In this document: positions 5,217-37,314 of the stretch, piece by piece
Numbering within the stretch: position 1 is the first letter of the stretch
Layout: each line of letters opens with the position of its first letter
DNA from: a virus
Strand: one strand, 5' to 3'
DNA: 41,353 bases
UHGV virus genome: UHGV-0007119
The notes under the pieces: generated by a model
Told to the model about the DNA's origin: nothing
Seen by the model: the letters and a program-made list of their open reading frames with translations, nothing else
Database searches by the model: none
Translations under genes and position numbers: made by a program

Positions 5217-7376
5217 TTACTCCTGTGCTATTCCGCTTAGCGACGCTACAATGCCAGCCCTCGCTAAGCGATTGAACTCTTCGTTTCCAACTGCATCACG
5301 TATTGCTTTTACGGCGGCTTTATTTGCCATAAATCTGCGTTCCGCCGCCGCTAATGCTTCTTTACTTCCGCCAGCTCTTACTGCTTTCGTGGCTTCCTGA
5401 ACTGCTTTCTCTATCGCATATCGACCGCTACGCGTGGTGGCAATTTTAGATACAGCGCCTTTTAACCCGGCGCCAACTAAAGCACCTGCGGCAGCGCCTG
5501 CAATGCCCCCTCCTGCTCCACCAACAATGGCACCTGATGTTGAGTTGGCAATTGCATTTAACACTGTTGATGTGACGTTGGATAAACCGGCATCCAGATC
5601 GCGTAGTACATTGGCAGTTCTCCCTGTTCTTTCAATATACTGCTGAGGTTTCACTGCTGCTCTTGCAAGAGTGCCATATGCATCAGCAATTCTTCCAAGT
5701 TCTGAGGAATATCGGCTAATGGCTTTTACATTTTGTGGAGTGAGTATCTCTGCGATATGGTTAATTCCTGCTGCATCAGCTTTGCCACCACGTACACCAT
5801 GCGAGATAGCATCTTGCAACATTGATGATATAGCAGGAACACGCTCTGATTCTGGCAGCGCGCGGATCATAGAATGGAACCCAGCAGGACCATTAAGACC
5901 TTTAGCTGACGATGATTGAAGGGATTTTACTCCATTCGTAATCAGTGCATCTGTTGCCAAATCACGTCCGAAAACAGACTCTGCACTCTCTTGTGCTGAT
6001 AACCTCGCTTTAGACAGATCATTAGCTTTTTGCCAGTCATCAAGAAATCCGCCGTTTTCCGCCATTGTGCGCATATCATCAGTAATTGCCCGGCGTATTT
6101 CCCCTGCTCTCCTTGCCGCATTTGCCTCTCCGCTACGCTTATATTTTTGCTCCGCATCAGCAAATTTCGCTCTCCATGCTTTCATGCCATCAAATGTTAC
6201 TCCACCTTGATTGTTTGCCTGAACAAACTGTTTCATTTCAGGAGTAAGCGGTATGCCGGCAGATCGCTCTGCCTGAATAACGGCATTACCATTTAGCATT
6301 CTTGCTTTTTGATTTGGCATTGTTGACCGCACGTCATCCCATGCCGCGCGCTCGGCATCCTTCATCTGATCAAGATTTTGAAGAATCCTTTGTTTTATAG
6401 CCGCACTTTTTTCTGATGCCGTTCCAGATGCGGCCCCAAATTCATCAAGGTTTCGACTTAACTTTGATGATATTTCGTTAAATGCTGCCTGATGGGCGTC
6501 CTGAACAATTCCTGGTGTTGATGCCAATGCGCCTTCGGCTTGTGCAATTCCACGACTTCCAGATCGCATTCCTGGTGTTAATGCGTTTATATCAATTCCA
6601 GCAGACTCAGCCGCTTTTGCTACATCTTCGGACACATTAGCGGCCTGACTGGCAATTGACTGACGCCCAGCACCTGACTTTGCCATCCTGGAAACATCAT
6701 TAGCAGAATTCAGTGCTGCACCACCAAGAGCCTGTGAAACCCTTGGAGCAATAACGCGCCCGACACCTGAAAGAACGCCTTGAGCACCAATATTGATACC
6801 ACCGTTAATGGCAGCATTTTGTGCAAAGTCGCCCTCCTGATTTGCAGCATCAGCAAGAGAACCTGCAATCATGTTTCCTGCGGAACCGATATCTCCAGCG
6901 AGCTTTGCTGGCGCTCCAGCAGCTTTTGCCGCTGTGCCAATTGGCAGGAGATACCCACCAATTGTTTCACCGGCTTGCGCGTAAGGGTCTGTAGGTCGAT
7001 CGACAGGGCGATAAACATCATCCAAAACCTTGGGGCCACCAAGCCCCTGGCTGATTGCATTAATCAGACTTGCGCCACCCTGCAATACGTCAAATGGTAT
7101 GTTTACCAGACCACGACCAGCCTGCTCTGCAATTTGCCCTGCACTTTGACCACCTGTGAGCCAATCGCCAGCTTGTTGCATCAATGATGGTTCTTCTTTC
7201 TGCTGCTGAGGCGGAGGGTATGCTGCATAAAACTGGTCTCTTGCTTCAGCCCATTTGTCACCAGCCTTAGGGGCAACAACCTCATCAAAATATTGCGCTT
7301 GAGCCTGTGCTTTCTGTTCTTCAGTTAACGCCTGATACTGTGGAGAGGCGATAACATCTTTCCATGCTTTAGCCAT
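5217..7376 (-). CDS. Ejection (E) protein, P22 gp16-like
   Basis: 719 aa, Ala/Gly/Gln-rich, last gene of the conserved P22-order block 4-10-26-14-7-20-16. Confidence 0.8.
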
Positions 7377-21732: not shown

Positions 21733-22132
21733 GTCTTACCCCCAATAAGGGGATTTGCTCTATTTAATTAGGAATAAGGTCGATTACTGATAGAACAAAT
21801 CCAGGCTACTGTGTTTAGTAATCAGATTTGTTCGTGACCGATATGCACGGGCAAAACGGCAGGAGGTTGTTAGCGCGACCTCCTGCCACCCGCTTTCACG
21901 AAGGTCATGTGTAAAAGGCCGCAGCGTAACTATTACTAATGAATTCAGGACAGACAGTGGCTACGGCTCAGTTTGGGTTGTGCTGTTGCTGGGCGGCGAT
22001 GACGCCTGTACGCATTTGGTGATCCGGTTCTGCTTCCGGTATTCGCTTAATTCAGCACAACGGAAAGAGCACTGGCTAACCAGGCTCGCCGACTCTTCAC
22101 GATTATCGACTCAATGCTCTTACCTGTTGTGC

Positions 22133-22195
22133 AGATATAAAAAATCCCGAAACCGTTATGCAGGCTCTAACTATTACCTGCGAACTGTTTCGGGA
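22133..22195 (-). terminator. tR' terminator (end of the lambda 6S-type short late transcript)
   Basis: Minus strand reads CCCGAAACAGTTCGCAGGTAATAGTTAGAGCCTGCATAACGGTTTCGGGATTTTTTATATCTGC, matching remembered lambda tR'. Confidence 0.7.
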
Positions 22196-22327
22196 TTGCA
22201 TTTTGCAGACCTCTCAGCCTGCGATGGTTGGAGTTCCAGACGATACGTCGAAGTGACCAACTAGGCGGAATCGGTAGTAAGCGCCGCCTCTTTTCATCTC
22301 ACTACCACAACGAGCGAATTAACCCAT

Positions 22328-22819
22328 CTATCCCATACTGGAGAATTCACCATGATATTTTATCCTGGCATTTTCCATTGCCTTTCTCGCCTCCTCGATA
22401 TCGTCAAAACACCCTACATGAATCCTTTTACCATTGACCCTAATTCTTCCAACCCACTTGTTTGCAGCAGAATTAAAAGTCACCCCCTTCACACCAGATG
22501 AATTGTTTTTCCTCATCTTGCTGTTCCATGAGTTTTGAGTGTTAGTAACAACACGAAGATTGGCTATCCGGTTATCAGACCTATCACCATTAATATGGTC
22601 AATCACATCGGTTGGCCAATCATTGTAAACCATCAGCCATGCAATTCTATGGACATATAGCCGCATTCCATAAAGTTTTACCTGCAGATATCCATTTGTT
22701 TTATAGCCAACAACAGCGCCATAAATAAATCTAGAAGACCGAGGTGGATTCTTCCATGTAAGAATTCCAGTATCTGGATTGTAATTAAAAAGTCTCAATG
22801 CATCTTCACGTTTTAACAT
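22328..22819 (-). CDS. HNH homing-type endonuclease with AP2-like DNA-binding domain
   Basis: 163 aa; HNH motif HRIAW…DHINGDRSDNRIANLRVV…QNSWN, then GVKGVTF…NKWVGRIRVNGKRIHVGCFDDIEEARKA (AP2-like); AT-rich; sits inside the pR'-tR' leader. Confidence 0.85.
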   Translation of the reverse strand: MLKREDALRLFNYNPDTGILTWKNPPRSSRFIYGAVVGYKTNGYLQVKLYGMRLYVHRIAWLMVYNDWPTDVIDHINGDRSDNRIANLRVVTNTQNSWNSKMRKNNSSGVKGVTFNSAANKWVGRIRVNGKRIHVGCFDDIEEARKAMENARIKYHGEFSSMG

Positions 22820-23012
22820 AGGCGAACCACATAGATATTAGAGCCTGCTGACATAGAAATATCACCACGAGAGAAGTCGCCAAAAGCGATATTTCTCAGG
22901 CTCTATTCCTATGTGCTCTCGAGTTTATGATGCGCATGTCAGTGCGCTTAGAACTTAAAGATGAGGTGGGTAAAAACTGAAAGAATGTGAACGGATATAA
23001 ATCTGCCATTCT

Positions 23013-23048
23013 TGAGTCAAATTTACCCAATTTTATTCAATAAGTCAA
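23013..23048 (-). promoter_or_regulatory. Late promoter pR' (Q-dependent antitermination site)
   Basis: Minus strand TTGACT (23048-23043), 17-bp spacer, TAAATT (23025-23020), then TGACTCAAG; matches remembered lambda pR' up to about +3. Confidence 0.75.
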
Positions 23049-23090
23049 TATCATGCCGTTAATATGTTGCCATCCGTGGCAATCATGCTG

Positions 23091-23714
23091 CTAACGTGTG
23101 ACCGCATTCAAAATGTTGTCTGCGATTGACTCTTCTTTGTGGCATTGCACCACCAGAGCGTCATACAGCGGCTTAACAGTGCGTGACCAGGTGGGTTGGG
23201 TAAGGTTTGGGATTAGCATCGTCACAGCGCGATATGCTGCGCTTGCTGGCATCCTTGAATAGCCGACGCCTTTGCATCTTCCGCACTCTTTCTCGACAAC
23301 TCTCCCCCACAGCTCTGTTTTGGCAATATCAACCGCACGGCCTGTACCATGGCAATCTCTGCATCTTGCCCCCGGCGTCGCGGCACTACGGCAATAATCC
23401 GCATAAGCGAATGTTGCGAGCACTTGCAGTACCTTTGCCTTAGTATTTCCTTCAAGCTTTGCCACACCACGGTATTTCCCCGATACCTTGTGTGCAAATT
23501 GCATCAGATAGTTGATAGCCTTTTGTTTGTCGTTCTGGCTGAGTTCATGCTTACCGCAGAATGCAGCCATTCCGAATCCGGCTTGTGATTGCGCCATCCC
23601 CATAGCAGCCATCACATCAGTACCGGAAAGAGAGTCAGAAGCCGTAGCCCGTGGTGAGTCGCTCATCATTGGGCTTTTTGGCGAATGAAATTTAGCTACG
23701 CTTTCGAGTCTCAT
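23091..23714 (-). CDS. Q: Late-gene antiterminator Q (lambda type)
   Basis: 207 aa MRLESVAKFHSPKSPMMSDSPRATASDSLSGTDVMAAMGMAQSQAGFGMAAF…, matches remembered lambda Q. Confidence 0.95.
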   Translation of the reverse strand: MRLESVAKFHSPKSPMMSDSPRATASDSLSGTDVMAAMGMAQSQAGFGMAAFCGKHELSQNDKQKAINYLMQFAHKVSGKYRGVAKLEGNTKAKVLQVLATFAYADYCRSAATPGARCRDCHGTGRAVDIAKTELWGRVVEKECGRCKGVGYSRMPASAAYRAVTMLIPNLTQPTWSRTVKPLYDALVVQCHKEESIADNILNAVTR

Positions 23715-23899
23715 CGTCTTCCCCTCTTGCCCTGTTTGACCATCAGGACGCCGTTAACTATTACGTGACGTTCGCCTTTGCTGTCTCGGTTGTACTTGAG
23801 CACCGTTCCTCTTGCACAGGAAAGCATCCTCGCCACTTCGGTCTGATTTCCTCGTGTCTGGATAAGAAGCTCTGGTATCGTTTGAATTGTGGCGTTCAT
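23711..23899 (-). CDS. ninH: NinH-like protein
   Basis: 62 aa; …NQTEVARMLSCARGTVLKY…IVNGVLMV… resembles lambda NinH; ATGA overlap with Q. Confidence 0.75.
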   Translation of the reverse strand: MNATIQTIPELLIQTRGNQTEVARMLSCARGTVLKYNRDSKGERHVIVNGVLMVKQGKRGRR

Positions 23900-24258
23900 A
23901 CGTTCTCCAGTTCGGTGATTTTTATTCCAAGCCTTCCGCCTGGTACTTTCACACCACGAATTACGCGAATGTCATCGAATTGCTCGTCGTCTTCCGCAAA
24001 TCCGGCGTGGATAAGTGAGTCGAGTAAACCTTTCAGGATGTTATCGAGGTCGCGGCGGCGGGAGTCTGGAACGTCTGCGATGACTTTGATGCGGAGTCGT
24101 GATTTGGTGAAAATGTCTAACTTGAGTTGGCGGATGATTTGCTGAACGTCTTTTCGGTATTTCTGGCCTTTATCGCTGATGTAGTATTGGCTTCCCCGTC
24201 TTCGCCAGTAGGTGTTCAGCGACGGTGGGTACGGAAGTGTGAATCTGTATTCTGCCAT
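23896..24258 (-). CDS. rusA: Holliday-junction resolvase RusA
   Basis: 120 aa; …PPSLNTYWRRRGSQYYISDKGQKYRKDV… typical of RusA; nin-region position. Confidence 0.85.
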   Translation of the reverse strand: MAEYRFTLPYPPSLNTYWRRRGSQYYISDKGQKYRKDVQQIIRQLKLDIFTKSRLRIKVIADVPDSRRRDLDNILKGLLDSLIHAGFAEDDEQFDDIRVIRGVKVPGGRLGIKITELENV

Positions 24259-24783
24259 TTATCCTCTCCCATGATTATGGTGATAGCCCAATCGTGATTC
24301 CGCCAATTTTCTGGCATTAACGGCTAGAGATATGTCATCGTATAATCCAAGAAATATCTTTTTATTATCACTGTTTATATATGCACCCCACTTTTTATTC
24401 TTCTTATAGTAGGCAACACCAATTACTCCAGAGCGATTATTAATAGGCTTTTTTCTGTTCCTTGAGTTCTGTTTATCATCTACAACGCGCAAATTGCATA
24501 TTCTGTTATCGCTTTTAATTCCATTTATGTGGTCAATTTCCCCATCAGGTTCACTTCCATAAAAGGATATCCATGCGATTCTATGAGCTCGACAAACTTT
24601 TTTATTTACAGATATACGAACGTATCCTTTTTCATCTATAGAACCAGCAATCTTACCGACATATGTTGAATTCCAGCACTCTCTTACACTTTCTCTTCTC
24701 TTGTATATAAACAAACCTGTTTCGCTATTATATTCATACAATTCATTGATTTCTTTTTGTGTTGGATATCTTTTACCGTTCAT
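24259..24783 (-). CDS. HNH homing-type endonuclease with AP2-like domain (paralogue of 22328-22819)
   Basis: 174 aa; HRIAW…DHINGIKSDNRICNLRVV…QNSRN, then GVIGVAYYKKNKKWGAYI…; very AT-rich; abuts the rusA start and overlaps the upstream stop (ATGA). Confidence 0.85.
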   Translation of the reverse strand: MNGKRYPTQKEINELYEYNSETGLFIYKRRESVRECWNSTYVGKIAGSIDEKGYVRISVNKKVCRAHRIAWISFYGSEPDGEIDHINGIKSDNRICNLRVVDDKQNSRNRKKPINNRSGVIGVAYYKKNKKWGAYINSDNKKIFLGLYDDISLAVNARKLAESRLGYHHNHGRG

Positions 24784-25070
24784 GACTTAATCTTCCCCTC
24801 CTTCAGCAGTATCGCCTGCGTCCTGATCACGCCTTCGAGGTGGTAAAGTCTGGCGTCTTTGTTGTCGAGAATCCTTGTGCGTCGGTCGATCTCCGCGTGG
24901 CAGTCACTACAAGCCCATGCACCGATCAGGTCGTCAGGCTTCATTCCCGTTCCGCAAATTCCAGCCATCCTGTAATGTGCCAGAACTGTAGTTTCAGGGT
25001 TGCCATTGCATATGCCGTAAATACGTACCTGGCATGCTCTGCCTCGCGCTTCTTTGCGTAGGTTAGCCAT
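24780..25070 (-). CDS. Cys-rich nin-region protein (YbcO/DUF1364-like, recalled)
   Basis: 96 aa with conserved cysteines (…CQVRIYGICNGNPETTVLAH…CSDCH…); resembles remembered DLP12 YbcO. Confidence 0.6.
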   Translation of the reverse strand: MANLRKEARGRACQVRIYGICNGNPETTVLAHYRMAGICGTGMKPDDLIGAWACSDCHAEIDRRTRILDNKDARLYHLEGVIRTQAILLKEGKIKS

Positions 25071-25795: not shown

Positions 25796-25964
25796 CGTCT
25801 TCTTCCTCGTACATTGAGCTATTCGGATCGCTCATCAGTTCTGCGCAGCAATCGGAGCACACGTGAACTTCCAGCACATGCAGCTTCTGACCGCAGTTAG
25901 CGCACGTTAAAGCTCGCTCGACGCTTTCTTTCTGGTATTGAAGAGATTGGGATGGACTAAGCAT
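25788..25964 (-). CDS. ninF: NinF-like protein
   Basis: From internal Met [50 protein letters not shown]…, close to remembered lambda NinF. Confidence 0.75.
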   Translation of the reverse strand: MLSPSQSLQYQKESVERALTCANCGQKLHVLEVHVCSDCCAELMSDPNSSMYEEEDDE

Positions 25965-26364
25965 GGCTTTCACCATTAAAAAGTCGCTTGTAAGCATCAA
26001 TGTCTCGTTTTGCTTCACCGAGCTTTCGTCTTAATTCCATGTTTTCTGATTCAAGCTTTTCCATGTCTTGTTGGTATCGATCGCGGTGTTCTTTCCATGC
26101 TTTTTGATACGCCTTCATGTATGTCATGTTGGCCTTTCTCTTTGCCTGACGAACTGCGTGGTGGTTTTTCACAAACCAGTCAGGGTCGTTAAATGCTGCT
26201 CTGGCGCATGTATACCAATAATTTGTTGCCTCCCTGTTTAGCCAATAAATACTGATAAATGGCAACCGGATAGACACCATTTTTCGTTGTGACTCTTTCT
26301 CGCCAAACATGTGCCCTTTTTTGATGCTAAGGCCAAATCCAGGTTGAATTAAAAGCATTGTCAT
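25957..26364 (-). CDS. Hypothetical nin-region protein
   Basis: About 135 aa from internal Met [10 protein letters not shown]…; ATGA overlap with the NinE stop; basic C-terminus. Confidence 0.5.
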
Positions 26365-26537
26365 TTCCTCGCGCGATGTCTTAGCCACCGGATATCCCAC
26401 AGGTGAGCCGTGTAGTTGAAGGTTTTTACGTCAGATTCTTTTGGGATTGGCTTGGGTTTATTTCTGGAGCGTTTCGTTGGAAGGTATTTGCAGTTTTCGC
26501 AGATTATGTCGGTGATACTTCGTCGCTGTCGTCTCAT
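26361..26537 (-). CDS. ninE: NinE-like protein
   Basis: From internal Met [58 protein letters not shown], close to remembered lambda NinE. Confidence 0.75.
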
Positions 26538-27061
26538 GCCGCCCTCCTGGCGCCCTGCCCGATCGCCATCAATGCCGATTTGGATACGGTAGTAAACATC
26601 CGTCGAGGACTGATGAACGGTCGCCAAATCAGCAGCATTGAGCCTTTGCTGTTTCCCTTCTTCTCCAGCCCCGTCGATGGTTCGATAAAATTAATCCGTC
26701 CATCAGTGATAATGCGAACTTCGTCGACACTCTCCAGAGCCTTGCTGAACCATCCGACTGACATATCCTCTGGCACAAGCATAACTACAGTCTGTCGCTG
26801 TTGTATGCACTGCTCAGCGGCTTTTTCCACCCACGGCCTGATATTGCTGTACGGTGGGTTATTCCAGATTGCACCGTGGCTTACCCACTCAGAATTGAGC
26901 GCGTCGTCAGCCTCAGTTAGCCAGTGAGCGCACAGGGCGTTTTTGTCGCTCGCTGCCGAATCCAGCCAGAATCCAAACTCAATATCCAGTGCATCAAAAA
27001 GCCAGAGCGGCGTTTGCCAGCAGTCCTTGTCGTGTGCTGGCGTATTTGATTTGATAGTCAT
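26534..27061 (-). CDS. Orphan DNA N6-adenine methyltransferase (phage Dam-like)
   Basis: From internal Met [18 protein letters not shown]…; NPPY catalytic motif (…IWNNPPYSN…); ATGA overlap with the NinB stop; no adjacent restriction endonuclease. Confidence 0.85.
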
Positions 27062-27504
27062 GCAGCCTTCCCTTTTCGTTGTGACCATTCATACTCTCGC
27101 CGGGAGTCATCACTCCACCGCACGTTGCGCTCTGAGCCGAACCAGAACATGATTTCGATAAGCTCAGTCATGCTGGCCTTTCGCATTTTGCTGGTACGCA
27201 CTCCAAGCATAACAACGCCACCGTCGATACCAGGCGCACTTCGTTGCTCCAGTTTTTTGGTCTTAAGCCACAGGGCAGTGAACAGATCTTTCCAGTCCTC
27301 CGGCGCAAGTCTCTCTCCATACCAGAGCACCTGACGCGATACGTCCTGCAATAACGCCCACATAAGGCGGTTTTGAGGATTGCTCCGCTTTGGTTCTTTA
27401 ATGTGGACTTCGTGAGGTGACTTGTCGTCGATCGGAAGTGAGAGTATTGCGTCTATGGCGTTGTTTCTGATTGCTTCGTTGCGAAGCATGTATATTTGCT
27501 TCAT
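27058..27504 (-). CDS. ninB: NinB recombination protein
   Basis: Start MKQIYMLR… after GAGGTAA; …NPQNRLMWALLQDVSRQVLWYGERL… resembles lambda NinB. Confidence 0.85.
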   Translation of the reverse strand: MKQIYMLRNEAIRNNAIDAILSLPIDDKSPHEVHIKEPKRSNPQNRLMWALLQDVSRQVLWYGERLAPEDWKDLFTALWLKTKKLEQRSAPGIDGGVVMLGVRTSKMRKASMTELIEIMFWFGSERNVRWSDDSRREYEWSQRKGKAA

Positions 27505-27511
27505 CGTTACC

Positions 27512-27718
27512 TCAACTAACAAAACGCCACGCCATTTTTGCTACAGCGACAGGCATAACACCGATAATCACCCAGACAAATGCAGCGCCAAACAACGTAT
27601 ACCATGGGTCTTTACCGTCATTCACAAGACGAATGTAGCTATGCAGAACAATAAAAAACGTCAGAAGAATCCATCCAACGCCAACGCATTTGAGTGCGAC
27701 GAGCATAAACTCAGCCAC
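27512..27718 (-). CDS. Small two-helix membrane protein, unknown function
   Basis: 68 aa; GTG start 6 nt after GGGGGAGAG; two hydrophobic helices; first gene after the tR2-like terminator. Confidence 0.45.
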   Translation of the reverse strand: MAEFMLVALKCVGVGWILLTFFIVLHSYIRLVNDGKDPWYTLFGAAFVWVIIGVMPVAVAKMAWRFVS

Positions 27719-27732
27719 GATTTACTCTCCCC

Positions 27733-27765
27733 CAAATAAAAAGGCCTGCAGGTAATCGCAGGCCT
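27733..27765 (-). terminator. tR2-like intrinsic terminator between replication genes and nin region
   Basis: Stem AGGCCTGC/GCAGGCCT (8 bp) followed on the minus strand by TTTTTATTT. Confidence 0.65.
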
Positions 27766-27793: not shown

Positions 27794-29230
27794 TCAGAAT
27801 CCTCCTTTCTTCTTGGACTGCGGTTCCTCACGTTCACGGCGGCGCATTTCAGCAGACTGTTGGTCTGTGTCATAAATAGCGCCATTTGCCTGAATGCAAT
27901 ACACCGTGCCGGTATTGCCATGACGATTGAGGCGAAGGATTAGTTCGGTTTCACCAGGAGGAACGCTGTCATCAAAAGCACCTTCACGATGGATCCCCAC
28001 CCAATAATCGCAATCCTGTTCAATCTGCCCTGTATCTCGTGAGTCACTTGGTAATGGGCGTTTATTGGTTCGGCTTTCCAGTGCGCGGTTAAGCTGTGTC
28101 AGAAGCACAACAACGCAATCAAGCTCTTTGGCAAGGTTCTTCAGTCCTTTGGTGATCATGCCGTAAGCAAGGTCGTTGCGATCGGCCTTCTCAGCGGTCA
28201 TTAGTGTCAGGTAATCGACCAGAATCATGCCAACACATCCTTTTTCTCGCTTGATTCGACGGCTTTCGCTGACGATTTGAGCCAGAGATAATCCCGGCGT
28301 GTCGTCGATGTAAAGCAGGTCGATTTCACTCAAGCGATTGGCTGTTTCGATCGCCCTGTTGAAGTCACCATCGTAATCACCCTGATAGCCGTCATCAGCG
28401 TCATTTGTCGCCGGAAGGTAAAAAATATTCGGGTTAACACCAGACTTCTGCCCTACCAGTTTTTCCAGTATCTGATCACCTGGCATTTCAAGGCTGAACA
28501 TCAAAGCGGGCTTTTTCTCATGCACTGCGCAATTGATTGCCATCTGGCTGTATAGCGTCGTTTTCCCCATCTTAGGGCGAGCGCCAATGACAAACAGAGA
28601 GCCTTTCACCAGACCTTTCGGTGACAGCATCCTGTCCAGCGATGGGATCCCTGTGCTCATTCCCCGTTGTTCGCCTGATGGGTCAAATCGCTTCTCAAGG
28701 TCGCTAACCCAGTCTTCCATGACCTCACCAAATGAGCGAAGGCCGCGACGCGATCCGGTTTTTGCATGGTCTGTCAGTTGCGTGAAAATCGCCTGAATAG
28801 CTTCGTACTTCTGCATTGCAGTCATTCCGTTGCGGGAATAGAGCAATTCCGTCGCTTCAGTCATGCGGTTGATGGCGTAGCGTTCCATTGCGGTTTCACG
28901 AACCTGCATTGCATAGGCAACGATGTTTGCTGCGCTTGGCGTGTTCTTTGCGATCTCAGCGATATAAGCAAAACCGCCAACAGACGCCGTTAACGATTTA
29001 CGCTCCAGTTCATCGAAAAGCGTCAGGCCATCTACTGGCTTTTGCTCACGGTGCATTCTGGTTATTTCTTCGAAAAGGATTTTGTGTGGTCGGCTGTAAA
29101 ATGAATCAGGCTTCAGCATCGCCAGAACTTTCTGGACGCGCTCACTGCTGTCATCATCCAGAAGCAATCCACCAATCACCGCCTGCTCTGCCTCGATGCT
29201 ATGGGGCGGCGCATAAAAATTATCGGTCAT
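27794..29230 (-). CDS. Replicative DNA helicase (DnaB-like, P22 gene 12 type)
   Basis: Start ATG (MTDNFYAPPHSIEAEQAVIGGLL…) after GAGGG; Walker A …GARPKMGKTTL…; typical DnaB N-terminal motif. Confidence 0.9.
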   Translation of the reverse strand: MTDNFYAPPHSIEAEQAVIGGLLLDDDSSERVQKVLAMLKPDSFYSRPHKILFEEITRMHREQKPVDGLTLFDELERKSLTASVGGFAYIAEIAKNTPSAANIVAYAMQVRETAMERYAINRMTEATELLYSRNGMTAMQKYEAIQAIFTQLTDHAKTGSRRGLRSFGEVMEDWVSDLEKRFDPSGEQRGMSTGIPSLDRMLSPKGLVKGSLFVIGARPKMGKTTLYSQMAINCAVHEKKPALMFSLEMPGDQILEKLVGQKSGVNPNIFYLPATNDADDGYQGDYDGDFNRAIETANRLSEIDLLYIDDTPGLSLAQIVSESRRIKREKGCVGMILVDYLTLMTAEKADRNDLAYGMITKGLKNLAKELDCVVVLLTQLNRALESRTNKRPLPSDSRDTGQIEQDCDYWVGIHREGAFDDSVPPGETELILRLNRHGNTGTVYCIQANGAIYDTDQQSAEMRRREREEPQSKKKGGF

Positions 29231-30110
29231 CGTGTTCACCCTCACGAACTTTCAGGTAGGTATTATCGTTAAGCAGGAAATCAAATCCCTTTTTGTGCCA
29301 GACGGTTCCGCGCTGATGGTTTGGGCGCTCTTCGAACATCCATCGGCAATTTTCGCCTACGTAGCTCAAATAATTTCTCCAGTCCTGCATCGTGAAACCA
29401 TGCCCGTCAAGCTGTCGGGTTATCACTCCGGCTTTGCGCCAGAACGTTCGGATCTGGTTTTTACGCTTGTCATTCAGTGCGCGGATTCTTGGCGCTTCAG
29501 GAAGGATTTCGTGGTAAGCATCGACAACATCCTGACAGCTGACGGAAGGTTTTTTCTTGTCAGACTTTTTGTCTGCTGTGGCACTCTCTAATACGTCAGT
29601 ATTAGAGATATTATTTATATTATTGTTTATGGACAACCGTTGGACAACCGTTGGACAATCTCCGCTGAGAGGCGCGCCATTACTGGTGTTTGCGTTGGAC
29701 AACCGTTGGACAACCGTTGGACAATTTTTTGCCTGAAAATCGTCATATTTAACGATTGTAAACAGGCTAAATTTCTTCCCCATCGAGCAAATATTAAGCA
29801 TCCCTTTCGACTCAAAAGTCCGTAATAAGCTCCGAACTTTGTTGTCGGGGATGAATGTTTCTCTGACCAGCGACGGGCGTCCAGTTATCATCTGACCGCG
29901 ATCAACAGTTATCGGCCCGATATCCGTATTGACGACAGTAGATTCGTGATTAGCCTTGAGGATTAAGTGAAGCCAAAGATGTACTGCCTGAGAGTCCTTA
30001 TAGAGCCTGCTGTCCATAAACTGGCGGTGTATAGAGACATACCCCATACTGGATGCCTCCTGATGTTGTACAGGGTTATGCCTGTAATCAGCTAATTTAA
30101 CGACGCCCAT
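29220..30110 (-). CDS. Replication initiation protein (O-like) containing the origin iterons
   Basis: 296 aa; AGGAG RBS; located between cII and the helicase; iteron array lies inside the coding sequence, as for lambda O. Confidence 0.8.
   Translation of the reverse strand: MGVVKLADYRHNPVQHQEASSMGYVSIHRQFMDSRLYKDSQAVHLWLHLILKANHESTVVNTDIGPITVDRGQMITGRPSLVRETFIPDNKVRSLLRTFESKGMLNICSMGKKFSLFTIVKYDDFQAKNCPTVVQRLSNANTSNGAPLSGDCPTVVQRLSINNNINNISNTDVLESATADKKSDKKKPSVSCQDVVDAYHEILPEAPRIRALNDKRKNQIRTFWRKAGVITRQLDGHGFTMQDWRNYLSYVGENCRWMFEERPNHQRGTVWHKKGFDFLLNDNTYLKVREGEHDDR
29631..29724. repeat. Origin of replication iterons (11-bp GGACAACCGTT repeats, two clusters) with adjacent AT-rich tract
   Basis: GGACAACCGTTGGACAACCGTTGGACAATC at 29631-29660 and GTTGGACAACCGTTGGACAACCGTTGGACAAT at 29693-29724, then TTTTTTGCCTGAAAATCGTCATATTTAACG. 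Confidence 0.75.
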
Positions 30111-33636: not shown

Positions 33637-34544
33637 GCAATATCGTTGAATTCGTTAAACAGCAGGAGCAGTTATTCTGCGGAGCATTGACTGAACAGAC
33701 GGTGACATGGGCTAAGGAAAGCCAGTTTGCAATTCAGTATTTCCAGAAAAACGATTACCTGGCTAAAACAGCACTGGCAAACCCAACCAGCGCACAGAAC
33801 GCCATCATCAATGTTGCGGCGATCGGTATCACCTTAAACCCGGCTAGCAAACTGGCTTATCTGGTTCCGCGCGACGGCATGGTGTGCCTTGATATCAGTT
33901 ATATGGGATTGCTCCATATTGCAATGGAGTCTGGTGTTATCTCATGGGGTCAGGCAAAACTTGTTCATGCTAACGATACCTATGAGTCAAACGGGCTTGA
34001 TAAAGCACCAACCCATAAATACAACGCCTTCGGTGATCGTGGTGATATCGTTGGCGTTTACTGCACAGTTAAGACGCCAGCAGGTGATTATCTAACGGAA
34101 GAGATGAGTCTGGCTGAAATTGAGGCTGTAAGGAAAACAAGCAAGGCGGCATTCAGCGATAAAGGACCATGGGTAAATCACTGGAATGAGATGGCGCGAA
34201 AGACGGTCGTAAAGCGTGCAAGCAAGTATTGGCCTAAGGCATCACGTCTTGATAGTGCTATTCACGTACTAAACGAAGAAGAAGGTGTGTGGACTGAACC
34301 AGTTATGCCGCACAAATCAGAGGAAGATATCCGCGAAGATGAACGGAAACGCCAGCAGGAAATAATGGAAAAAGCACAACTTCTTTGTGATGAAATGGCT
34401 CAGGCTGAAAAAATGGATGATTTGAAGAGATATTTTGCAGAAGCATATCGCCTGACATCTGGAATGAAATTGCAGCAGAACATACAAGCCATTTACATAG
34501 AATGCAAAGCGAAACTGGAGGTTGCCAGTGAGCAAACTGTATGA
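33633..34544 (+). CDS. recT: RecT-family single-strand annealing protein
   Basis: 303 aa; …DKGPWVNHWNEMARKTVVKRASKYWP… parallels E. coli RecT …NNGPWVTHWEEMAKKTAIRRLFKYLP…. Confidence 0.85.
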   Translation: MSNIVEFVKQQEQLFCGALTEQTVTWAKESQFAIQYFQKNDYLAKTALANPTSAQNAIINVAAIGITLNPASKLAYLVPRDGMVCLDISYMGLLHIAMESGVISWGQAKLVHANDTYESNGLDKAPTHKYNAFGDRGDIVGVYCTVKTPAGDYLTEEMSLAEIEAVRKTSKAAFSDKGPWVNHWNEMARKTVVKRASKYWPKASRLDSAIHVLNEEEGVWTEPVMPHKSEEDIREDERKRQQEIMEKAQLLCDEMAQAEKMDDLKRYFAEAYRLTSGMKLQQNIQAIYIECKAKLEVASEQTV

Positions 34545-35010
34545 AATAGCCAATGAATACGCAAAATTGATGGATTCAGATTTAGAACCAGAGATGATTG
34601 CTGACACAATAGAAGGCATGGAAGGAGAATTTACCGATAAAATAGAGCAACTTCTTTCCGTCATTAAAAATGAATCTGGTTATGCTGAACGCCTCAAGGA
34701 AGAGGCAAAGTCACTTAATGAGCGAGCCGCAGTAATCCAAAATAAGATTGACAGCATCAAATCATATATAGCGTCATCGCTTGAAATGGTTGGCAAGAAA
34801 AATATTCGAGCAGGTATTCACCAGGTAACAATCCGCAAACCGTCAGAAATTGTAGAAATAATCGACTCAAGCGCCCTTCCTCCTGAATACGTTGAGTTTG
34901 AAACGACAATTAAAGCCGACAAACTGGCAATCAAACACCAACTAAAAGCAGGAATAAATATCCCCGGCGCTCAACTCAAAGTTGGGAAACCTTCACTTCT
35001 TATCAAATAA
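34528..35010 (+). CDS. Siphovirus Gp157-like protein (recombination-module partner, recalled)
   Basis: GTG start 6 nt after GGAGG; about 160 aa, coiled-coil-rich; family assignment from memory. Confidence 0.5.
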   Translation: MSKLYEIANEYAKLMDSDLEPEMIADTIEGMEGEFTDKIEQLLSVIKNESGYAERLKEEAKSLNERAAVIQNKIDSIKSYIASSLEMVGKKNIRAGIHQVTIRKPSEIVEIIDSSALPPEYVEFETTIKADKLAIKHQLKAGINIPGAQLKVGKPSLLIK

Positions 35011-35021
35011 CGGTATCGCCT

Positions 35022-35336
35022 ATGAAAAAGACTCCATGGGAGAAATGGGAAGTCGATTTCTTGCGCGAGGTAGCGGCGACAATGCCAGTTGAAGTTATCG
35101 CAGAAAAACTGGAAAGGACTGAAAAAGCAGTAATGGCGAAAGCAACAAGGATTGGCGCTGACATTGTTAGCCGACTTCGTGGAAGACGCTGGACAAGAGC
35201 CGAAGTATCACTTTTCGGTAAGTTCTCCGCAGAAGAAATAGCAATTGCAACCTGCCGCTCAATTTATTCAGTAAGAGCTATGCGATACAAGCTAAAAAAA
35301 CTCGATGAAGAAAGAGCAGGCATACGAATAAATTAA
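35022..35336 (+). CDS. Hypothetical protein with two HTH-like repeats
   Basis: 104 aa; two similar segments (…VEVIAEKLERTEKAVMAKATRIG… and …SAEEIAIATCRSIYSVRAMRYKL…). Confidence 0.5.
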   Translation: MKKTPWEKWEVDFLREVAATMPVEVIAEKLERTEKAVMAKATRIGADIVSRLRGRRWTRAEVSLFGKFSAEEIAIATCRSIYSVRAMRYKLKKLDEERAGIRIN

Positions 35337-35352
35337 CATGGAATAATTAACA

Positions 35353-35634
35353 ATGAAGCTAAACATCGACCTCGGAAAATACGTTATTACCGGAACCAAA
35401 CACGACCTGATTCTTAGCGAAAGAGGAATTATCAAAGAAGGCGAGAATGCAGGGAAAGAAACACTAAGTCGTATCGGTTATTACAGCAAGTTTGAGCATC
35501 TGGTTAAAGAGTTATGCAACCGTGAAATCCTGTTATCTCAGGCGCAGACGCTACAGGATATTCAGCAGCATATCGAGACTTTAGGTGTATCACTTAGCAT
35601 GGCTGTTGACCAGTTCATGGAGAGTAAATCATGA
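35353..35634 (+). CDS. Hypothetical protein
   Basis: 93 aa ORF in the early-left operon. Confidence 0.5.
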
Positions 35635-35773
35635 GAGGACTTGCATACAATCCCGGCATTCTTCCGGCAGAAATGATTATTCGCCAACGCGTAAAGCCAA
35701 TGCCATCGAGAGAGGAATTGCTTAAAAGAAATTCTTTTCCATCAGTAAATCAAAACAAATATCTGAATGCGAT

Positions 35774-36619
35774 GTGGCGGAGTGGGAAAAGATGAAACAA
35801 ATGTCACTAATTGAGATGGATGGTTTTCTGAAAGGTAAATGCATCCCAAATGATTTAAAGGTTAACGAAACAAACGCTGAATATCTTGTCCGTAAGTTCG
35901 GTGAACTTGAATCAAAACTGGAAACGGCGTTGCGGGAGTGTCGTTCTGCTGGAATCACGATTGATAACCTTGAGGCTAAATGCGCGAAGATGGCTGCTGA
36001 AAATACATCGCTTAAGCAATCTGAGAAGGAATGCGGATACTTTATTGACTGGCCTGGCGTCTGTCATAGGCGGGAGAGCATCAGAACCTACGCAGTGAAT
36101 TGCAATGACGCATGGCTAAACACCGAAGGTGATGACATCTCCGGCTCATACGTTAAGTACAAAGACCATCAGGAAGTGGTTGCCGCTCTTGAGGCCAAGT
36201 GCGCGGCGATGGCAGCGGAGAATGAGCTGGCTCGTAAAGCTGTTCAGGCATTCTGTGAGGTTGTTGGCGACAACACCGAGGTTATCGCTGAGGTGGTTGG
36301 GCGATATGGCGTTCTGGTTATTTTGAAGGCCATGAAGGCAACAGTAAATATGCCAGCCACCGATGCTTTCCTGGCTGAAATTCGTGCGGAAGCACGCAAC
36401 GAGGGGATTAACTATACCGCAAGCCGTCTTGCTGCTGCTTTCAATCACGGATTTATCAATAAGTCTTTACGTGAAGTTTTCGACGTTACACGCATGATTC
36501 TGTCAGCGAAAGAAGAGTTGGCTAATGAACCGCACCCGATTGATGGTCTTTCCGGTGAATATGCGGAGAAATCCCTAGAAGAATGGGCGGAACAGATTCG
36601 CAAAGGAGGCTGCCAGTGA
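35774..36619 (+). CDS. Hypothetical protein with internal repeat
   Basis: 281 aa, GTG start; two related segments (…[17 protein letters not shown]… and …[17 protein letters not shown]…); GTGA overlap with the next gene. Confidence 0.55.
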
Positions 36620-37314
36620 GCAAGATTGACTATCAGGCACTGCGCGAGGCGGCAGTGAAAGCAACGTGGGGAGACTGGGACTCATATAAACCACACCGTG
36701 GCGCACGTGGTTATGAGGTCCGACTAAGTAGTCAGGCCATTGCGCAACACGTTCTGAAAAACAACGCTGAATTTATTGCTGCCTTTAATCCCAAGGTTGC
36801 TTTGGCACTACTGGATGAGATCAACGCATTAGAGGAAACGCGTATCAACGATGTTTGCCGTATTGTGGAACTAACAAAACAACTGGAGTCGGCAAAATCA
36901 AAACTCAACGAGCAGCGCGAGCATTACGAGGGAGTAATCGCGGATGGAGGTAAGCGCATAGCAGAACTGGAAAAACAATGCGCTGAATCGGAGCGAAAAG
37001 CATTAAGCAACTTTGAAGAGTGTGCTGCGATGGCTGAACGTATCGAAGAGTTGGAGCAGGCCAACACAAGACAGGACGCCAATATAAACCACCAGCAGGA
37101 GGGCGTGACTCAATCAGTCACCCGATACATATATCACTACAACGCAGTGAATGGTTCTGACTCTATGTCTGGAATTGCGCGGTTAACTTTCATGATCAAA
37201 TCACAATCTGACCTTGACGCACTTAAAAGCGCACTTAGCAAGGTTGGTGGTTTCCGTGCAAAAGCAATTACATCTCTTTCATATCTTGGGTGTGAGGAAG
37301 ATAGCAAACGATGA
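36616..37314 (+). CDS. Ead/Ea22-like protein
   Basis: GTG start after AGGAGG; N-terminus [26 protein letters not shown]… typical of the Ead/Ea22 family, then a coiled-coil region. Confidence 0.7.
   Translation: MSKIDYQALREAAVKATWGDWDSYKPHRGARGYEVRLSSQAIAQHVLKNNAEFIAAFNPKVALALLDEINALEETRINDVCRIVELTKQLESAKSKLNEQREHYEGVIADGGKRIAELEKQCAESERKALSNFEECAAMAERIEELEQANTRQDANINHQQEGVTQSVTRYIYHYNAVNGSDSMSGIARLTFMIKSQSDLDALKSALSKVGGFRAKAITSLSYLGCEEDSKR

Follow-up and report, generated by a model that had tools for sequence, protein, structure and literature searches.

A gene in the nin region of a lambdoid phage genome (UHGV-0007119) very probably encodes a small, single-domain orphan methyltransferase of the PF05869 family that is an allele of M.EcoVT2Dam and HK97 gp62, has GATC as its probable target, and belongs to a translationally coupled ninB-dam-ninE unit. 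The whole 41,353-nucleotide stretch of viral DNA that was analyzed is referred to here as the window. Going by its sequence, the gene product is a PF05869/TIGR01712 phage N6-adenine DNA methyltransferase of a kind that is already described and common. It is a routine gene that can be annotated correctly, and the NCBI pipeline already gives its product the name "phage N-6-adenine-methyltransferase". What the analysis adds is the probable target, and it removes the gene from the set of novelty candidates.

The window holds a lambdoid phage genome that is read in reverse: its late genes occupy the minus strand as far as about 22 kb, the nin region extends from about 23 to 27.5 kb, and the left operon and integrase are on the plus strand. 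As a whole it is pieced together from known E. coli phages such as vB_EcoP-683R2, mEp506, Gally, and HK022, and its best overall matches are vB_EcoP-683R2, mEp506, and HK022-like phages. The original prediction had placed a 175-aa, Dam-like orphan N6-adenine methyltransferase with an NPPY catalytic motif, coupled to ninB through an ATGA sequence, at positions 26534-27061. The open reading frame at these coordinates is real, and its strand, which had been left unstated, is the minus strand; the protein length, the NPPY motif, and the overlap of the start codon with the ninB stop all hold (Table 1). In the program-made list of open reading frames, the minus-strand frame spans 26534..27088 and gives 184 aa when taken from its first ATG; the 175-aa reading begins at ATG 27061. 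The start at 27061 is favored because it has the GGGAAGG sequence before it and the ATGA overlap with ninB, and because the homologues and the VT2-Sakai annotation both support 175 aa. Most of the full-length homologues have exactly this length and cover 100% of the query. The upstream start at ATG 27088 was rejected on the same comparison with the homologues and VT2-Sakai, together with its poor ribosome-binding context. A 174-aa open reading frame on the plus strand (26403-26927) was set aside as the shadow of the minus-strand gene, which is strongly supported. Downstream, the stop codon of the methyltransferase gene and the start codon of ninE share a second ATGA that was absent from the original prediction. 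Because of these two overlaps, we regard ninB, the methyltransferase gene, and ninE as one translationally coupled block. The start of ninB is the probable ATG at 27504, which gives 148 aa and has GAGG 5 nt before it. For ninE, the NinE profile, 58 positions long, aligns with residues 31-88 of a mechanically called 88-aa open reading frame, which corresponds to the protein that begins at the ATG within 26534-26537.

Table 1. Features in and around the methyltransferase gene, in window coordinates
Feature	Position	Strand	Remarks
O-like gene	29220-30110		
DnaB-like helicase/replication gene (P position)	27794-29245		
Terminator-like hairpin, AGGCCTGCGATTACCTGCAGGCCT then TTTTATTT	27742..27765	minus	G+C-rich, 9 pairs (6 G-C), T run; between the DnaB-like gene and the nin genes
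68-aa open reading frame	27512-27718	minus	between the hairpin and ninB; no Pfam match
ninB (Orf-family recombination mediator), upstream gene	27058..27504	minus	PF05772, E 3.6e-48; phrog_72
Shine-Dalgarno-like GGGAAGG	27066..27072	minus	4 nt upstream of ATG 27061, within the end of ninB (AAAAGGGAAGGCTGC ATG)
ATGA overlap, ninB stop (TGA) and methyltransferase start (ATG)	27058..27061	minus	tcat on the plus strand
Methyltransferase coding sequence	26534..27061	minus	175 aa plus stop; PF05869/TIGR01712 member, near-identical copy of M.EcoVT2Dam
NPPY codons (AAC CCA CCG TAC)	26849..26860	minus	residues 68-71; catalytic motif IV of amino-methyltransferases
ATGA overlap, methyltransferase stop and ninE start	26534..26537	minus	tcat on the plus strand; AGGAGG upstream
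ninE, downstream gene	26361..26537	minus	58 aa; PF05322, E 1.4e-43
147-aa protein between ninE and ninF	25957-26400	minus	phrog_1511, E 2.2e-86; function-unknown PHROGs only
YbcO "putative nuclease" open reading frame	24780-25070	minus	
HNH_3 endonuclease-family open reading frame	24259-24783	minus	174 aa; 4-bp overlap with the YbcO open reading frame

The family of the protein is clear from profile searches. PF05869 ("Dam") is matched with an E-value of 5.9e-65 and 218.5 bits (cut-off 28.1) over profile positions 1-167 of 169, and the NCBIfam equivalog TIGR01712 ("phage N-6-adenine-methyltransferase") is matched with an E-value of 1.6e-79 and 265.2 bits (cut-off 97.05) over positions 1-165 of 165. 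Because both matches are this strong and run over the full length, the open reading frame is not a chance one. The protein also matches phrog_111 ("DNA methyltransferase") with an E-value of 2.1e-87, and the Pfam search returned no family besides PF05869. Residues N68, P69, P70, Y71, and S72 do not vary among 43 close homologues, nor among 7 diverse ones. In the 43-sequence alignment, the window protein retains all 45 invariant and 25 nearly invariant positions. It also has every residue that is invariant across the VT2, HP1, T1, and mEp460/SfV-type proteins (D13, T17, P18, L33, D34, N41, L55, W59, NPPYS, L95, S101, W104, R122, and F125), and the W-x-T-P, L-D-x-A-A, S-x-x-W-F, and G-R-x-x-F segments are all present. 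Alignment with homologues had been proposed as a way to reveal a frameshift or inactivating change, and none was found. At 175 aa the protein is small and has no separate or recognizable target-recognition domain; most family representatives measure 160-200 aa. Family profiles, motif, and NinB and NinE neighbors all agree with the predicted identity as an N6-adenine methyltransferase of the nin region. The term "Dam-like", in contrast, is apt for the activity only, as the family is PF05869/TIGR01712, to which the T1, HP1, and VT2 Dam proteins belong, and not the family of E. coli and T4 Dam.

A near-identical relative supplies the probable target. The window protein is identical in 173 of 175 residues to orf32 of phage VT2-Sakai (AP000363, 16434-16961), and the two differences, S162A and A171V, both fall in non-conserved columns of the 43-sequence alignment. 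Within VT2-Sakai, orf32 is the only open reading frame annotated as methylase-like and the only site in the genome that encodes [D/N]PP[Y/F/W], and therefore we identify it as M.EcoVT2Dam. According to Forde et al., M.EcoVT2Dam is "known to target 5'-GATC-3'", with Radlinska & Bujnicki 2001 (PMID 11720311) given as the source (PMC6602927). Decewicz et al. likewise cite PMID 11720311 and name P1 and VT-2 among the phages for which a dam-like activity on GATC "has been shown" (PMC7139368). Because the window enzyme is nearly identical to an enzyme that these papers report as GATC-specific, the adenine that it methylates, judged by this likeness, is most likely that of GATC. To regard the target motif as unreadable from sequence, as was done earlier, was thus too pessimistic.

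Structure prediction gives a less detailed picture. With 43 homologues as input, AlphaFold gave a single alpha/beta domain with a pTM of 0.77 and a pLDDT of 74.5 that drops below 50 for residues 36-48, and residues 36-65 as a whole are poorly modeled. All Foldseek neighbors in the PDB are weak (best E 2e-3, TM 0.55), and the best of them are mostly N6-adenine methyltransferases, namely, PCIF1, TrmM, EcoR124I HsdM, METTL3/14, CamA, and EcoDam. Searching the PDB by phmmer and with the 43-sequence profile returned no Dam chain at E<=10 and no solved structure of the family. Because confidence in the model is moderate and the structural matches are weak, we infer the assignments for cofactor binding and DNA reading. 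By analogy with the superfamily, the NPPY loop would take up the flipped-out adenine, with SAM-dependent transfer of the methyl group to N6, and the W-x-T-P and L-D-x-A-A segments may form the cofactor site.

The surroundings of the gene bear on when the enzyme is made. The gene sits in the early-right operon, where O is followed by the DnaB-like P, a tR2-like terminator, ninB, dam, ninE, and ninF onward. We take the terminator-like hairpin ahead of the nin genes to be at the position of lambda tR2, which is the terminator removed by nin deletions. Because the hairpin sits where lambda has tR2, the methyltransferase gene is probably delayed-early and antitermination-dependent, and the enzyme would be made after N-type antitermination. 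Screening with an antiserum for proteins produced by cultures of lysogens recovered an identical gene of phage Phi24B, the expression of which shifts significantly upon prophage induction (PMC3342100). The delayed-early reading fits this induction-linked expression. The 147-aa protein that follows ninE belongs to no Pfam or NCBIfam family; conserved in phages, it shows weak coiled-coil-like matches in its C-terminal half. Further downstream lie NinF, a Roi/Ant-type antirepressor, YbcO, and the HNH_3 protein. As predicted, no restriction endonuclease is adjacent to the methyltransferase gene, whose neighbors are NinB, NinE, the phrog_1511 protein, NinF, and Ant/Roi. The arrangement of a Type II restriction-modification system, with an endonuclease next to the methyltransferase, is not what is seen here, and the neighbors vary among phages that carry the same methyltransferase.

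What phage Dam enzymes do has been described as "still not well understood" (PMC7556043). For orphan enzymes of this kind, the original prediction had named protection from host restriction and an influence on replication or packaging, roles that the window enzyme may have. It may complete the GATC methylation of fast-replicating phage DNA where host Dam is missing or in short supply. The packaged DNA would then be resistant to GATC-cutting, methylation-sensitive restriction enzymes, and the phage DNA would escape treatment as unmethylated or hemimethylated DNA by MutH and SeqA. The window contains 92 GATC sites, compared with 171 +/- 12.5 in 200 dinucleotide-preserving shuffles (a depletion of about 2-fold) and 196 expected by a maximal-order Markov model. 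Among the 16 palindromic 4-mers, only CTAG and GGCC are more strongly depleted than GATC, and the longest GATC-free stretches are 22021-24825 and 34035-36819. Regions of prophage DNA that are poor in GATC were known before (PMC6602927, PMC4659465). That a phage 2-fold poor in GATC encodes a probable GATC methylase, in a host that is already Dam+, is puzzling and speaks against an obvious selective advantage.

The gene is widespread. It was found at 95-99% nucleotide identity in 244 phage records, including Stx1 and Stx2 converting phages, HK544, and Sf101, and it is present in 1562 of 5426 complete E. coli genomes (about 29%), with at least 80% coverage in 1540 of these. The copies in E. coli genomes are annotated as "phage N-6-adenine-methyltransferase" and stand between "recombination protein NinB" and "NinE family protein". 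The wider family comprises 8781 clusters at 50% identity (E<=1e-3). The small PF05869 module also occurs fused to other domains, as in relatives about 46-50% identical to the window protein (P0138, P0140, P0147, P0157, and P0242) that carry PF05869 at the C-terminal end of proteins of 497-691 aa. Other database calls join PF05869 to NinE (P0002 and P0023, 233 and 235 aa) or NinB to PF05869 (P0015, 209 aa), and P0002 has 41 member sequences. At the ATGA junctions, a change of one base or an error in sequencing could be enough to produce such fusion calls. A fusion of a Dam-like domain with PAPS reductase was suggested by the annotations of two records (H79 and H88), and for H88 it was rejected as an artefact of the product name: H88 is mEp460 gp45, a stand-alone methyltransferase homologue. 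This 217-aa protein (L007; NC_019716, 35775-36428) bears the RefSeq name "phosphoadenosine phosphosulfate reductase", and the note in its record says that it is similar to phage N-6-adenine-methyltransferase. By tblastn it is 31% identical to the window protein over 123 aligned residues. The reductase name was probably mis-transferred and may recur in other records, such as H79.

A Stx-prophage "Dam" that turned out to be a 16S rRNA methyltransferase raises the question of whether the physiological substrate or specificity of the window enzyme is something other than duplex GATC, either because a partner protein such as NinB or NinE is needed or because RNA or single-stranded DNA is acted on. 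We consider this improbable. The lack of a recognizable target-recognition domain in 175 aa, the poorly modeled residues 36-65, and the ATGA coupling on both sides would all suit such an enzyme, and the GATC specificity of M.EcoVT2Dam comes from two secondary citations. There is also a precedent in M.EcoPA8orf6770P, whose preferred substrate together with PNB-2 is 16S rRNA, and off-target methylation can occur when Dam-like enzymes are overproduced (PMC10810198). That rRNA enzyme, however, is an MT-A70 protein with a DPPW motif, encoded as gp5 near the integrase end, whereas the window protein matches PF05869 only and has NPPY. Moreover, three PF05869 members from unrelated phages (VT2, HP1, and T1) are each cited as GATC Dam enzymes (PMC7556043, PMC7139368; T1 by way of the Scherzer et al. 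1987 reference listed there). Homologues that are 66-69% identical occur in Providencia and Yersinia prophages with neither NinB nor NinE beside them, and because of this a conserved partnership with NinB or NinE is unlikely. We likewise leave just a small chance that the native job goes beyond simple duplex GATC, be it through reading of the target as an oligomer or with a partner, through work on replication or recombination intermediates alongside NinB, or through a second substrate like that of the MT-A70 prophage "Dam".

It is more doubtful still that the gene is an inactive relic, carried in a mosaic nin region and yielding no working enzyme. Next to host Dam, a second GATC methylase seems superfluous, and prophage Dam homologues have been found to be untranscribed or indistinguishable from host Dam in lysogen methylomes (PMC4659465, PMC6602927), but silence in lysogens is expected of a gene of the lytic cycle. 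The open reading frame is uninterrupted and has a good ribosome-binding site, the conserved family positions are all kept, and just 2 of 175 residues differ from M.EcoVT2Dam, a cloned and active enzyme. The full-length conservation at 95-99% identity across the 244 phages and about 1540 E. coli genomes fits purifying selection. Least probable of all is a restriction-modification or toxin-like pair in which the methyltransferase would supply the modification and YbcO or the HNH_3 protein would be its counterpart. These two nuclease-family open reading frames do lie 1.5-2.3 kb downstream in the same operon, but ninE, the 147-aa open reading frame, ninF, and the antirepressor gene stand between. 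The nin region of VT2-Sakai has the same methyltransferase with another downstream set (orf34, ant, roi, and ninG-like) and no annotated HNH gene, and the Providencia and Yersinia prophage loci show no nuclease domain beside the homologue. In phage genomes, HNH_3 proteins like this one typically stem from insertions of the homing-endonuclease type, and the HNH_3 gene of the window looks like such an insertion. The reading that we prefer is that of an orphan PF05869 enzyme with a probable GATC target, and it is this enzyme that is compared with known systems below.

The MT-A70 enzymes M.EcoGV and M.EcoPA8orf6770P are likewise prophage-borne, occur in Stx phages, and are annotated as GATC Dam. 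They differ from the NPPY-bearing window protein in their DPPW motif, their location near the integrase end, their winged-helix partner, and their preference for 16S rRNA (PMC10810198). No MT-A70 Pfam match was found in the window, and the gene upstream of the methyltransferase gene encodes NinB, not a winged-helix protein. Scanning the open reading frames of the window for [DNS]PP[YFWH] left the gene under study as the only credible one; the only other match is an NPPF in a 96-aa open reading frame (5920-6207, plus strand) that is antisense to a large minus-strand gene. The Stx-prophage rRNA methyltransferase, being the product of a different gene of the MT-A70/DPPW family, was accordingly rejected as a model and serves as a caution only (PMC10810198). 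Other candidates were set aside as well. The non-specific phage adenine methyltransferases Hia5, Hin1523, and Nma1821 have DPPY and FxGxG motifs and a distinct recognition region, and the report on them makes no mention of the T1/HP1/VT2 family (PMC3299994). PhiOS31_p25 and phiP27 L24 were considered as models of relaxed specificity, and phiP27 L24 proved to be a different protein of 352 aa that is encoded upstream of stx. M.EcoGIX, which targets "SAY", is plasmid-borne, single-strand-specific, and unrelated (PMC7736820).

The same product, G-m6A-TC, is reported for the alpha-class Dam proteins of E. coli and T4 (MethyltransfD12), which are also orphans and share the general Rossmann-type fold class. 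No sequence relationship between them and the window protein was detected in Pfam or in sequence and profile searches of the PDB, and the similarity in fold is weak (TM about 0.33, E 0.1-0.3), with a Foldseek TM of 0.33 and E-value of 0.12 for EcoDam. EcoDam exceeds the window protein in length by about 100 residues and recognizes DNA through a dedicated domain. The relation between the E. coli and T4 enzymes and PF05869 looks like convergence in specificity and not shared family membership.

Within the family, HP1 and T1 provide more distant points of comparison. The 173-aa product of HP1 orf13, which by its homology we take to be HP1 Dam, is 38% identical to the window protein, and T1 Dam (237 aa) is 33% identical. 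Citations of GATC activity exist for both, in PMC7556043 for HP1 Dam and, for T1 Dam, through the Scherzer et al. 1987 reference listed in PMC7139368. Both share with the window protein the family, the motif set, the small size, and the orphan state. T1 Dam is unlike it in having a 45-residue N-terminal extension and a 14-residue insertion. The sequences are distant, and the genomic contexts in HP1, a P2-like temperate Haemophilus phage, and T1, a virulent siphovirus, are unlike that of the window.

The closest counterparts are found in other lambdoid phages. HK97 gp62 is a 98.9% identical protein and represents the same gene as M.EcoVT2Dam and the Phi24B dam. The window phage is a different lambdoid mosaic from VT2-Sakai, with no stx and with other downstream nin genes, and the two conservative substitutions that separate its enzyme from M.EcoVT2Dam lie in a non-conserved C-terminal helix. 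Like the window gene, orf32 of VT2-Sakai is an orphan of 528 bp, set in the order ninB-dam-ninE with 4-bp overlaps on both sides.
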